Shown: one piece after another, positions 1 through 3,000 of the stretch
Numbering within the stretch: position 1 is the stretch's first letter
Layout of the letters: the number at the start of each line of letters is the position of its first letter
Virus record (IMG/VR): IMGVR_UViG_2684623171_000015
Reading direction: 5' to 3' (one strand)
Source of the DNA: a virus
Taxonomy: Duplodnaviria > Heunggongvirae > Uroviricota > Caudoviricetes
Length of the DNA: 9,387 bases
Made by a program: the position numbers

Positions 1-3000
1 TGTCAGTTATCATCTTCGGTTACGGTTATCGGCAGAACGCCCTGCCGCTGACAAGAGCTTATTTGCCTGACCAATCTACTCCACATGATAGATAACTATC
101 ATTTATAACATTTCATTGATTAGTCTTTATTTTTCACTATGTTACAAATAACAACTCCGTCAAAAACAGCGAAATTAACTACACCATTAACTACACCGTT
201 TCACGAACAATATCGAACAACCACGAACAAAGATCAACACGCTTTAACCGTTATCATTTTCCGGCCATCCGTTATGAAGCTGGTGGATGTTCCCCGATAT
301 GGGTATCCCCACCTACCTGGCTTTTTTTCCGGTTAAATGTTAATCAGGCTGGTGGCCTTTACATACCCTTGATCACGGTAATGATGATTCAGGTGCGTAC
401 CTTTTCCCCAGTGGGGTAAAAGCTCCAACCGTAACGATGTTCGTTGTGGTTGCCTTGATGGTCTGCGTGGTCATTATGACCATTCAGAATTTGAAGGGTG
501 ATGTTTCCGATCTCCTCAAATTGAGGATTGTGGAAGAATCAATGGGTTAGTCTTACTTTCCCAACATCCCCCAATGGGGGTTTTCGAAATAATCAATGGG
601 TTAGGCCATAGTGCAATTTTGCACTATGGAACAATTCCAACCAGTTATCGGCATCAGGCCCACCAGCCAACGCAATTTTGCGCTTTGCTTTAATCTCAGT
701 AAGTTACCGCGCCAATTTCCGCAGTCTGTGGAAATTGGGAAGAATCAACGGGTTAGGCTGGTTTCCCCGATGTTCGCCGCTGGCGAATTTCGAAAATATC
801 AACCAGTTACCGCCGTATCCCGATATGGTGATCCCCATATCGAGATTGGATACCTGGCTTTTTTTCCGGTTAAACGTTAATCAGGCTGGTGGGCTTTACA
901 TACCCTTGATCACGGTAATGATGATTCAGGTGCTTCCCCGATATGGTGATCCCCATATCGGGATAGATGCTGGAAAAATCAGCTTTTCGCCAGAACGGTG
1001 ACGGCCTTATCGAGTTTTTGCCATCCGCAATAGGTGATTGCCCTGAACGCTGTAGCGTCATTCTGGAAAAGGCTAACCGCCCCTGATTCGGTTTTTATTA
1101 CCGCCTCATCAGTTGGGGTTATAACCGTGGCTTCAACGTTAATAATCAGCTTTTGAGCGTCTATCAGCATCATGCGATCCGCCTGTTCGCTCACAATTAC
1201 CGGTATTCTCAAAAGCTCTATCTGCCAGAACTCAGCATCAGTAAGCTGTAAGGCGTTTTCTACGGGCAATATTAGCGACGACGTGGAAAGCGTGTTACCG
1301 TTCGCTATGTGCTTTTTGAAAATCTCTATGAAGTTTTCGGCCTCATCAGCACCATTAAGCACGCCCTCAGGGGATACGCCAGCCACCTCCTGATCACTGG
1401 AAAGAAATTTTTTATCTATTTCTTTCACCGATTCCGATGTGATCAAGTCTCTGATCGCTGAATTTGTACCAGGGGTGCTAAATTTGATTAGCTCGTTATT
1501 CAGCATCACAATAGCGCCAAGTTTGCACAATTTTAGCGCACTTTCGTTTACTTCTCCCTCTTTGACAGGGATTTCTTCGGCTTCTTTAAGCCATTTACTA
1601 CCCTTGCCTGATATTGAATGCAATTTTGCGCCAAACGGAAGATTAAGCGCGCTGCTGATTAGCTTGCCTGGTACAGACTGCGAAAAAATATACTCGCCAA
1701 GCTCTCTTACTATCGGCTCTGCCACCAGCGACGGCATGTTATCCGTAGTCATTCTGTTGACGATGGATTTTTCAAGAAATTTCGATACTGCCGGATCATT
1801 TCTTTTCGTCATCTCTATAGCGTCAGCATGGCTAAATTTACACGATGCCAGCACGCTGGCGGCGCGAACTGCTGACACGCCTTTCATGTTTTTACAGATC
1901 ATCTTCTTCCTCCTCCTGGAAGCACGGGTTTAGTGTTTCGTGAAAATATGGCATCAGAACAGCGGCGGCCTGTAACCGTATTTCGGTCGACTGCTGCTTG
2001 TCGTTCATGATTTCCGTGAGTACATCAATAGGGTCTGTGATGTATTCGCTCATAGTTCGCTACCTCAGTGTTTTAAGTCTGTTGGTGGCTTAGGGATGGG
2101 GAACCGATTTGAGTAGACACTAGCGGCATTGAGTTTTTTAACCTCTTTTTTCCCAATGCTGCCGATCTTGCGGTGGGTGAACTGGGCCAGCTTAAACGCG
2201 GCATCTAAAGCCAGTTTTGGATCTGTGTCCATGTTGTCAATCAGTATCCTGCCCATTGCTTTGATGGGGTCGGGTAGGCCGTTATCCATCATCTCAATGG
2301 TGTTAATTGATGCCCGTTCCGGTGTAACTTTTTCGGTAACTTTCTTTGTAACTTTTTTCGGTTTTGTAACCTGAAAAGTTACATCAGAAGTTACAGCCTT
2401 AAGATACTTTTTCACCTCAGGATCGTTGGATAGCTGCCAGCCTTTAACCCTTGCGGTCTTTTCGCTGTATCCCGCATGTATAGCGGCTTCCGTGGGATTT
2501 GCGCCCCTTGATAACGCATCAGCAAACCGCTTTTTTTTGGTCGTTAATGCCATGCAAAAACCTCGTTTTGAGGGGGTGTAACTTTTCGTGTAACTTTTTT
2601 GAAAAGCAAAATTTTCTACGAATGAGACGGGGGGCGGTGTCCAGGGTGATCGACTTTCCGGCCGGAACACTCCCCCCCCCCATGTCATTGCTCACCGAGT
2701 AACGAGATCAGGCCTTCAACTTCATTACTCAGCTTGTTTATTCGTGTCTCAAGCTCTGCGATCTTTTCCATCAATGGCGCTATGGTGTCTCTTGTTTCCT
2801 CGCCAATGGCCTTAATGATGCTTGCCTCGCGTTCTGTGATAGCCATTTGTTATGCCTCACCTGTTGCAATGCCCAGTCTTTCGCGTAACAGCACACGTGC
2901 AAGATGACCTATTGTTGGCGTGGCGGCTCTGCCGTAGATGCCAGCTTCATTCATCCGGCGAATAACATCGAATTGAATTTTTTTAAGCTCGTTTAGGATC

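Follow-up and report, generated by a model that had tools for sequence, protein, structure and literature searches.

A close described relative of the locus analyzed here is a site inside the roi gene of phage HK022. Clerget and Boccard reportedly found in 1996 that the HK022 Roi protein recognizes a site in the gene that encodes it, next to a site for IHF, and that IHF stabilizes the complex. Among satellites, P4 has cis sites recognized by a helper regulator, the P2 Cox sites upstream of its PLL promoter. Plasmid centromeres show a tandem arrangement, as in F sopC, which consists of 43-bp repeats that each contain an inverted repeat, and P1 parS has a central IHF site. BIME/RIP elements join REP palindromes to an IHF site in noncoding DNA, and in lambda cosB (R3-I1-R2-R1), which lies at an end of the packaged element, sites for the wHTH protein TerS are combined with one for IHF (PMC6739421). 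Rha-family genes have also been tied to IHF in the literature (PMC4936722).

The stretch of DNA analyzed here (9,387 nucleotides; the window) is 100% identical to E. coli O157:H7 chromosomes, between clpS and cspD, and is a PICI-type phage satellite integrated between these two genes. Pfam and PHROG profile matches identified int, AlpA, a D5-type primase, TerS, and a capsid-like protein, and the element combines int, alpA, pri-rep with an ori, a unidirectional operon, and a specific att site in ~10 kb, as PICIs do. Comparison with the empty site of K-12, which reads ...catgatagataactatcat/ctatcg (slash, junction), set the island boundary at 112/113, and the att core recurs at the opposite island end in another record (L001, 19353-19372). 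The noncoding end of the island spans 866 bp (113-978) and includes the palindrome-rich segment 397-817, in which six dyad-plus-IHF-core modules (u1 to u6) form an array at 499-817. This segment belongs to the island and is missing from K-12, where the site is empty; it is thus not a conserved chromosomal intergenic sequence.

The array shares with the HK022 roi site and the IHF-linked rha of phi80 and P22 a layout in which a dyad lies 17 bp upstream of a WATCAANNNNTTR core (offset computed in HK022), and u1, u2, and u5 show direct sequence homology to roi-family genes. Phages have one roi module per genome, located inside the gene whose own product is its presumed ligand; in contrast, the satellite has six tandem noncoding modules of apparently different specificity and no Rha-domain gene. 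The concept of a satellite carrying sites for a helper DNA-binding regulator is shared with P4, but the P4 sites serve one helper protein and are tied to a promoter, whereas the array appears multispecific, has IHF cores, and occupies the 3' end of an operon with no promoter evident. Tandem ~50-bp units with inverted repeats and the apparent involvement of IHF recall F sopC and P1 parS; however, centromere repeats share one dyad and one protein, while the array dyads differ and the island contains no partition genes. Like BIME/RIP elements, the array places palindromes with an IHF consensus in noncoding DNA, but it is island-borne, absent from the empty site, homologous to phage genes, and free of the REP consensus (none within 397-810; one 3-mismatch match at 811 is a chance match). 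Like cosB, it lies at an end of a packaged element and joins putative sites for a wHTH protein to IHF sites, and in EcCICFT073 a similar array is found within several hundred bp of cos1/cos2, but the array itself has no cosN, cosQ, or R elements.

Table 1. Features of the noncoding island end, the last island gene, and the replication origin, in window coordinates.
Feature	Positions	Strand	Details
Island/chromosome junction	88-112		att core GATAGATAACTATCAT; island DNA from about 113
Probable integrase arm-type repeats	174-232	+	ATTAACTACACC x2 (174-197), CGAACAA x3 (203-232); direct repeat D15
Chi, then partial copy of palindrome P	279-311	+	Chi 279-286; P 293-311
Direct repeat D1, copy a	314-401	+	Chi inside at 348-355
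Leader, two dyads without IHF core	401-498	+	CCCCAgTGGGG (406-416, then aaaagc); TGGTCATtATGACCA (468-482)
u1	504-552	+	Dyad TCCTCAAaTTGAGGA (513-527); perfect IHF core AATCAATGGGTTA (537-549)
u2	558-606	+	Dyad CCCCCAaTGGGGG (568-580); perfect IHF core AATCAATGGGTTA (591-603)
u3	606-650	+	Dyad ATAGTGCAAttTTGCACTAT (608-627); degenerate core TTCCAACCAGTTA (635-647; 2 mismatches)
u4	651-710	+	Dyad CGCAAttTTGCG (671-682); degenerate core TCTCAGTAAGTTA (694-706)
u5	711-757	+	27-bp dyad CCAATTTCCgCAGtCTGtGGAAATTGG (712-738); perfect IHF core AATCAACGGGTTA (743-755)
u6, terminal unit	758-814	+	Dyad TTCGCCgctGGCGAA (773-787); perfect IHF core TATCAACCAGTTA (797-809)
Palindrome P, copy 2	816-846		ATCCCGATATGGTGATCCCCATATCGAGAT
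Direct repeat D1, copy b	851-938	+	Chi inside at 885-892
Palindrome P, copy 3	937-965		CCCGATATGGTGATCCCCATATCGGG; just past stop of capsid-like gene
Last island gene, HK97-fold capsid-like protein	979-1902	-	Pfam Phage_capsid 1.3e-6, phrog_617
Island replication origin	3475-3698		Six CCTCTACC iterons flanking AT-rich stretch, directly 3' of primase gene

The array segment is bracketed by the two copies of D1 (88 nt, 95% identical), a repeat that is kept at the ends of a cf-PICI and EcCICFT073, and three copies of the 26-bp palindrome P flank the palindrome-rich segment. The P-D1 sequence had no match in phages. D1 was rejected as a promoter, as its -35/-10 match is weak and, on inspection, is not kept in the cf-PICI version. 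Four Chi sites lie within 113-978, one of them on the minus strand inside u4 (660-667), and the Chi-P composite at 279-311 also occurs in two other loci (L009 and L149). The motifs at 174-232 recur at the opposite end of the island, beside int, and at the ends of further PICIs, which makes a role as integrase arm-type sites probable. The product of the adjacent gene (979-1902) is named "phage major capsid protein" in RefSeq.

The initial annotation described 397-817 as a noncoding segment packed with unrelated palindromes and 17-bp direct repeats. The palindromes it listed are all present: TGGTCATtATGACCA (468-482), CCTCAAaTTGAGG (514-526), CCCCCaatGGGGG followed by TTTT (568-584), ATAGTGCAAttTTGCACTAT (608-627), CGCAAttTTGCG (671-682), CCAATTTCC-N9-GGAAATTGG (712-738), and TTCGCCgctGGCGAA (773-787). 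CAACCAGTTA likewise occurs twice, at 638 and 800. Of two reported TTTCGAAA sites, the one at 582-589 was correctly placed, while the second lies at 788-795, one base from the reported 789-796. The direct repeat does have three copies, but these are looser than described (GAAGAATCAATGGGTTAG, aAAtAATCAATGGGTTAG, and GAAGAATCAACGGGTTAG), with AATCAAYGGGTTAG as the invariant part. The density of palindromes exceeds chance: counting perfect inverted repeats with arms of ≥6 and loops of ≤9, the segment contains 6, compared with 1.1 ± 1.0 in dinucleotide shuffles (0/500 shuffles reached 6). Other 421-bp stretches of the window average 0.86 and never exceed 3. The absence of a credible open reading frame also held, with stops in all six frames and no RefSeq annotation. 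A coding repeat protein was considered, given that the peptide (G/E)xINxLG recurs, and was rejected, as the frames differ and stops intervene.

The dyads are not unrelated. Positions 499-817 comprise six tandem modules, all in the same orientation and with cores starting 44 to 59 bp apart, and each module consists of a distinct palindrome centered 17 to 18 bp upstream of an IHF-type core (17, 17, 17.5, 17.5, 18, and 17 bp for u1 to u6). The dyads are variants of one module, homologous to an intragenic roi site. Four of the cores are perfect matches to the IHF consensus WATCAANNNNTTR on the plus strand (537, 591, 743, and 797), and these are the only four in the 9,387-bp window, in which 0.61 would be expected by chance; the two remaining cores (u3 and u4) are degenerate. 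The u4 unit is shared with two other loci (L005 and L214). The earlier notion of a multiprotein assembly site is apt in a general sense, given the ordered dyad and IHF-core composites and the clustering of IHF matches, while its specific proposals (cos/pac, late promoters, or small RNAs) found no support. Some of the dyads span only 13 bp, which is short for a helix-turn-helix dimer. The leader is almost identical to a stretch of a cf-PICI locus (L005, 4085-4165), and its "dyad + aaaagcc" type resembles another subfamily of Rha genes (L403 and L505).

The same module, with equal spacing, is found within codons ~43 to 56 of the roi/ant (Rha-domain) genes of lambdoid phages, including HK022 roi, in the part that codes for the wing of these Rha-domain and KilAC regulators (roi-family proteins have Phage_pRha and ANT domains). 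Unit u1 is 97.7% identical to phage roi genes over 43 nt and 91% identical over 57 nt to roi of JLK-2012, Lahn2, and Stx1a phages, and the matching stretch of the JLK-2012/Stx1a-phage gene codes for ...RHPQIEDCGRINGLG. Unit u2 matches roi of VT2-Sakai and other Stx2 phages (87.5% over 40 nt) and, at 93.8% over 32 nt, a further roi-family locus (L372). For u5, it is the dyad that has a counterpart, in a roi-like gene of a phage (L502; 96% over 25 nt). No phage counterpart of u3, u4, u6, or the leader (397-498) was found among the sets searched. Beyond the window, a cf-PICI unit matches phiP27 ant, and a unit of PICI locus L155 carries a dyad, CCTGCAtTGCAGG, that is exact in one type of roi gene (L280) and present with one mismatch in HK022 roi (CCTGCAtTGCAGc). 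The single perfect IHF consensus in the 6 kb of HK022 examined lies inside roi, with a dyad centered at -17; the dyad-core offset is 17 bp in the HK022, JLK-2012, VT2-Sakai, and phiP27 genes alike. An IHF core occupies the homologous position in 307/318 roi-family gene hits from viral contigs, a set in which some genes are counted more than once owing to overlapping searches. There are 32 distinct core-bearing roi haplotypes; in 30 of these, a perfect dyad with arms of 3 to 8 bp is centered directly at about -17, and the remaining 2 have 5-bp arms around a 3-nt center. Third codon positions across the family are invariant in the dyad and core and variable in the spacer and NNNN positions. In the island, the units are noncoding (frames differ, with stops in all frames), and a domain search found no Phage_pRha or Rha-domain protein encoded by the island; thus, by stop scan and domain search, the array is not inside the gene of a Rha-domain protein, unlike the roi-gene sites.

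Homologous arrays terminate many E. coli PICIs, including EcCICFT073. A two-core pattern retrieved 17 loci from IMG/VR (three of them duplicates) that are homologous by blastn to the window or cf-PICI arrays, besides many chance matches. When 185,579 species-representative genomes were scanned with this pattern, all matches were unrelated or due to chance; the arrays were thus not seen in the representatives of other species, in a set that holds only one genome per species. Across 17 PICI arrays, 47 distinct units were compared; in 42 of them the center of the best perfect dyad lies -16.5 to -18.5 from the core, and these 42 units comprise 11 dyad types, to which the u3 dyad of the window adds another. 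Core-to-core spacings cluster at 48 to 49 and 54 to 55 bp, and the cf-PICI array contains 6 matches to a relaxed IHF pattern, WATCARNNNNTTA (0.21 expected). Some PICI dyads are longer than the phage version, such as one with 12-bp arms in L005 (CGACCTCCTCAAaTTGAGGAGGTCG). Array composition is mosaic and varies from island to island, and a u6-type terminal unit is conserved in 16/17 tabulated homologous arrays, with L180 ending in a different unit. The arrays occur across three packaging systems (Terminase_2 TerS; P27-type TerS with TerL and HNH; and Rpp/lambda-cos) and at least two integrase types, the same units being found at the narP site with a different integrase and arm type (L009 and L149). 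A sister island in strain OkiPb01711 is the same island at the same integration site with the whole array missing; the array is therefore dispensable for island maintenance. A 93-amino-acid gene (phrog_1561) with no Pfam or PDB relative is conserved beside the arrays of other PICIs and is absent from this window.

Because the dyads and IHF cores are homologous to roi sites, we read 499-817 as a double-stranded-DNA array of putative operator mimics for helper Roi/Rha proteins and IHF, a reading to which we assign a probability of roughly 0.6. In this way, the satellite would probably capture regulators of its helpers, together with the IHF of the host, rather than mark a packaging site.

The main alternatives differ in what they would have the dyads do. 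Were the array a packaging or accessory site of the cos/pac or cosB kind, island or helper TerS would bind the dyads, IHF would bend the DNA, and packaging of concatemers would begin there. Its location suits such a role: the array lies at the island end, ~1.25 kb downstream of terS (2065-2553) and beyond the capsid-like gene, its composition recalls cosB, and the flanking Chi sites and 26-bp palindromes might befit a DNA-end region. However, the lambda signals are missing. The cosN sequence GGGCGGCGACCT has no match in 1-1900 at up to 3 mismatches (the sole 1-mismatch match falls within the coding sequence of the primase, and matches overall are as numerous as expected by chance), cosQ (TTTACGGGTCCTTCC) has none in 1-1100 at up to 4 mismatches, and TerS R elements (CGTTTCC type) have none in 1-1100 at up to 2 mismatches. 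In EcCICFT073, the array (L268, 11360-11692) is separated by 350 to 1,100 bp from the experimentally defined cos2 (cosN at 12036) and cos1 (cosN at 12775), which are functional and sufficient on ~300-bp plasmid inserts (PMC6092414). The array also does not track terminase type, since its units are shared by three packaging systems; a G-rich stretch between hnh and terS is a candidate cos of the cf-PICI, copies of the island without the array exist, and homology points to roi genes rather than to terminase sites. A cos/pac function, as put forward in the initial annotation, is therefore unlikely. No better placed is the idea of an extended attP arm, in which sites for IHF and accessory factors would help the island integrase to build its intasome for integration or excision. 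IHF sites are usual at the att sites of tyrosine recombinases, and the array lies beyond the probable arm-type repeats, 290 to 700 bp from the att core. It is, however, far longer and more repetitive than known att arms, its units stand beside a different integrase and arm type at narP, an array-less island is integrated at the same site, and the dyads derive from roi genes; of the alternatives, we regard this one as the least probable.

A cluster of structured RNAs, whether small RNAs or nut-like box-and-hairpin elements transcribed from the island end, would account for the many stable hairpins (folding z-score near -5), the u2 hairpin followed by TTTT, and the conserved box preceding a variable hairpin on the island coding strand, which superficially resembles boxA-boxB. 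Yet the two strands fold alike (-110.1 and -110.3 kcal/mol), as expected for DNA palindromes, and several stems would carry loops of 1 to 2 nt. Rfam gave only a chance SNORD48 match outside the array (E = 0.71), a scan for hairpins with T-runs found no terminator-like site, and promoter enrichment is absent, with 3 weak promoter-like sites in 1-1100 (2.3 expected) and none in 397-817, which also speaks against the late-promoter array suggested earlier. The boxA consensus is lacking, so a nut boxA/boxB reading was rejected. Moreover, relative to transcription, the module of phage roi genes points one way and that of the island operon the other. This is more in keeping with a site that acts as double-stranded DNA, and RNA elements are accordingly very doubtful. 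Somewhat less remote, though still improbable, is that the units are nonfunctional debris, fragments of roi/ant left by repeated recombination between islands and lambdoid prophages. Their homology to coding sequence of phage genes, the mosaic arrays that differ between islands, and the sister island without an array would all be expected of debris. Against this stand the retention of only the ~45-nt dyad and core from a gene of roughly 720 bp, in one orientation and at regular spacing; the IHF core that remains perfect although reading frames are broken; dyad symmetry that is maintained or even extended relative to the phage genes; and the terminal unit, which is identical in 16/17 tabulated arrays. 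Two further candidates were rejected. An integron attC-like array is at odds with the lack of an IntI gene and with attC core motifs that do not fit on inspection. As for a replication origin, the iterons lie at 3475-3698 and none occur in 1-1100; the layout of the origin there agrees with that described for E. coli PICIs (PMC6092414).

If the array is indeed a set of operator mimics, as consensus matches and homology suggest, the Roi/Rha-family proteins of different helper-type phages would each have a dyad to bind, with the neighboring core bent by IHF from the host. Multiple modules would then combine into a compact block of nucleoprotein at this end of the island. Of the possible consequences, we rank first that the amplified island sequesters helper Roi/Rha and IHF, acting as a decoy that would alter helper development. 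Next would come a roadblock or insulator that depends on the helper and closes the island operon at its 3' end, beside attP. Third would be a platform for sensing helpers, comparable to what the P2 Cox sites are for P4. We know of no roi or rha gene in lambda. This phage induces and mobilizes EcCICFT073 (PMC6092414), and the array is thus not needed with lambda as the helper. More tentatively, the operator mimics at the noncoding end of E. coli PICIs may amount to a library with exchangeable entries, each copied from the autoregulatory Roi/Rha and IHF site of one of many different lambdoid phages, the amplified array soaking up or recruiting the helper regulator and IHF; we hold this to be possible but less likely than not to be correct in this extended form.

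PICIs are major gene-transfer vehicles in E. coli, and their recognition of and interference with helpers are partly known (Rpp, capsid formation). In the PICI literature searched, the terminal noncoding DNA is undescribed, and no link to IHF or Roi was found. Reading the region as an array corrects a tempting misannotation as a cos/pac site. Should the array bind helper Roi/Rha and IHF, this would give a testable function to the widespread and poorly understood Roi/Rha regulators, reveal a decoy or sensor that acts in cis in the interplay of satellites and helpers, and provide a sequence marker predicting the phages with which an island interacts, including Stx phages in EHEC. If a library of operator mimics does exist, it would represent a new cis-acting means by which satellites sense helpers or manipulate them, and array content would be a record of the phages met, with u1 resembling Stx1a-phage roi and u2 resembling Stx2-phage roi.

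Positions 499-817 read as six tandem units (u1 to u6), each comprising a variable dyad, a spacer, and an IHF-type core, because the offset between dyad and core is fixed: a palindrome precedes each core, with its centre 17 to 18 bp upstream, and successive cores lie 44 to 59 bp apart. The four perfect matches to the IHF consensus are the only ones in the 9.4-kb window, for which 0.61 would be expected; two further cores are degenerate. The leader (397-498) contains two more dyads and no core. The initial annotation described 397-817 as a non-coding segment packed with palindromes and direct repeats. 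Every palindrome it listed was found in place, and no frame is open; the second TTTCGAAA site is present as well, at 788-795 rather than at the position originally assigned. Six perfect inverted repeats (arms of at least 6) occur, compared with 1.1 ± 1.0 in dinucleotide shuffles (0/500 shuffles reach six) and a maximum of three elsewhere in the window. Within the direct repeat GAAGAATCAAYGGGTTAG, the IHF consensus WATCAANNNNTTR is matched perfectly.

Many Escherichia coli O157:H7 chromosomes are 100% identical over 801 bases around this segment; in them, clpS and cspD/yljB, direct neighbours in K-12, flank the window. Alignment to the empty K-12 site placed the island junction at 112/113, inside a GATAGATAACTATCAT core that has a second copy at the far end of the island. 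Every island gene is encoded on the minus strand, and Gram-negative PICIs show the same gene set and the same unidirectional layout (PMC6092414); thus, the segment is part of the 866-bp non-coding end (113-978) of a phage satellite, downstream of its last gene. In most PICIs, the last gene before the array encodes a conserved 93-aa phrog_1561 protein, whose place is taken in the window by the capsid-like gene. A 53-aa open reading frame (1892-2053) that overlaps the capsid-like gene at its start matches a TerS family over the family's C-terminal part (phrog_641 positions 89-125) and is possibly left over from a duplication of terS.

Coordinates of features in the window and in comparison loci (L numbers)
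Feature	Location	Strand	Remarks
Perfect IHF cores	537, 591, 743, 797	+	
Degenerate cores	635, 694		
D1, 88-nt direct repeat	314-401, 851-938		brackets the segment
P, 26-bp palindrome	293-311, 816-846, 937-965		CCCGATATGGtGATCCCCATATCGGG
Chi	279, 348, 885, 4674, 5829	+	GCTGGTGG
Chi	660, 1722, 4413, 6945, 8496	-	GCTGGTGG
Capsid-like protein	979-1902	-	
TerS	2065-2553	-	Terminase_2
ori	3475-3698	both	six CCTCTACC iterons around an AT-rich stretch, directly 3' of the primase gene
D5-type primase	3713-5467	-	
DUF4222	5464-5763	-	
AlpA	7078-7302	-	
Integrase	8164-9387	-	
phrog_1561 gene	L005 4620-4901; L007 4023-4304; L009 3064-3345; L268 11690-11971		
EcCICFT073 array	L268 11360-11692		
EcCICFT073 cos2/cos1	L268 12036, 12775		cosN positions
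G-rich stretch, cf-PICI	L005 6990-7040		acggggtggggggcg
Counterpart of window 314-938 in the array-less island of OkiPb01711	L004 3190-3330		single D1

Partial matches occur in 1172/5426 complete E. coli genomes. In several PICI types, the terminal non-coding DNA consists of homologous arrays of two to eight units. These are cf-PICIs with hnh-terS(P27)-terL at phoQ (e.g., L005, strain 110), clpS and narP islands carrying other head genes, 17 IMG/VR loci with homology shown by blastn (three of them duplicates), and the prototype EcCICFT073 (L268, E. coli CFT073). In 42 of 47 distinct unit instances, the centre of the best perfect dyad falls -16.5 to -18.5 from the core; there are 11 dyad types (12 including the u3 dyad of the window), and core spacings cluster at 48 to 49 and 54 to 55 bp. 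The terminal unit (TTCGCCgctGGCGAA + TATCAACCAGTTA) is kept in 16/17 tabulated arrays. EcCICFT073, which has been studied experimentally, carries the P-D1 module together with a CCACCAaTGGTGG dyad and three dyad-IHF units between its last gene and phoQ; we found no mention of these in accessible papers. The cos of HNH-dependent phages usually occupies the hnh-terS position; the G-rich stretch of L005, between the hnh-side ORF and terS, is therefore a candidate cos site of a capsid-forming PICI.

A phage-genome search linked the units to roi and ant, lambdoid regulator genes of the Rha-domain family. Unit u1 is 91% identical over 57 nt to roi of lambdoid phages including JLK-2012, Lahn2, and Stx1a phages, within the coding sequence (...RHPQIEDCGRINGLG) of the N-terminal Phage_pRha domain. 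Counterparts were likewise found for u2 (roi of Stx2 phages including VT2-Sakai, reading CCCCCAaTGGTGG + AATCAATAACTTA), the u5 dyad (roi-like gene L502), a cf-PICI unit (phiP27 ant), and the dyad CCTGCAtTGCAGG of PICI L155, present without change in roi genes of the L280 type. The O157:H7 island thus holds units matching roi of both Stx1a and Stx2 phages. In HK022 roi, the centre of CCTGCAtTGCAGc lies 17 bp ahead of AATCAATGATTTA; the 6 kb examined hold no other perfect match to the IHF consensus. HK022 Roi reportedly binds a site in its own gene close to an IHF site, and IHF is said to stabilise this binding. Among viral contigs, the core was at the homologous position in 307/318 roi-family gene hits (some genes counted repeatedly by overlapping searches), and a perfect dyad lies directly around -17 in 30 of 32 distinct core-bearing haplotypes, the other two having 5-bp arms and a 3-nt centre. 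At third codon positions, dyad and core are invariant while spacer and NNNN positions vary, which is weak evidence, as the sequences are close relatives. Some IMG/VR roi-like genes (L502) contain 25-bp perfect palindromes in their coding sequence (CAATTTCCACAGaCTGTGGAAATTG), and another subfamily (L403/L505) has a dyad followed by aaaagcccaccgcagg, matching the core-less second module type of PICI ends; a self-encoded operator thus seems general to the roi family.

The actual ori lies elsewhere in the island, and cosN, cosQ, and R elements of a lambda-type cos are all absent from the array. The initial proposal of a cos/pac site also conflicts with EcCICFT073, whose functional cos2/cos1 are separate from its array; array occurrence is independent of terminase and integrase type. 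The units are non-coding (mixed frames, stops), with perfect cores and dyad symmetry kept or extended (e.g., 12-bp arms in L005). They always share one orientation, which runs with transcription in phage genes and against the operon in the island. Both strands fold equally well, and searches of the region for RNA families, terminators, and promoters gave no signal, so the suggested small-RNA cluster and promoter array are not supported. Taken together, orientation, folding, and the absence of these signals make a double-stranded-DNA protein-binding site the most economical reading.

The initial annotation overlooked D1 and P, both of which flank the segment on either side. Two P copies lie ahead of D1, and Chi occurs ~10 bp upstream of P at 279-311 and in narP-site islands. 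P-D1 had no match among the phage genomes searched; P might serve as an operator for a regulator or as a site of end processing. In OkiPb01711, the island is the same minus exactly one 537-bp D1-to-D1 unit and hence lacks the entire array, a natural presence/absence polymorphism that is consistent with recombination between D1 repeats. The IMG/VR locus L189 has a window-type array but a left D1 of the cf-PICI type, a mix that indicates exchange between co-resident PICIs. Chi is present 10 times in 9.4 kb (0.17 expected from shuffling), with four copies in the non-coding end, and 11 times in 11.5 kb of EcCICFT073 versus twice in 11 kb of flanking host DNA. This abundance suggests that Chi protects island DNA, when replicating or linear, from RecBCD.

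We found no description of this array, a PICI-IHF link, or a PICI-Roi link in the searchable literature. The dyad-IHF module as such has reportedly been described in one phage; its multi-specific tandem array in satellites appears to be new. Rha/Roi proteins inhibit phage growth under limiting IHF. Rha-family genes have been linked to IHF (PMC4936722). The units are predicted to be operator mimics for Roi/Rha-family regulators of differing lambdoid phages, each with an IHF bend. The array might act as a decoy sequestering helper Roi/Rha and IHF after island amplification, as a roadblock or insulator that depends on the helper and separates the island operon from attP/int or host genes, or as a helper sensor, comparable to the P2 Cox sites on satellite P4. 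To our knowledge, lambda has no roi gene. Because lambda mobilises EcCICFT073 (PMC6092414) and array-less islands exist, the array is accessory rather than essential.
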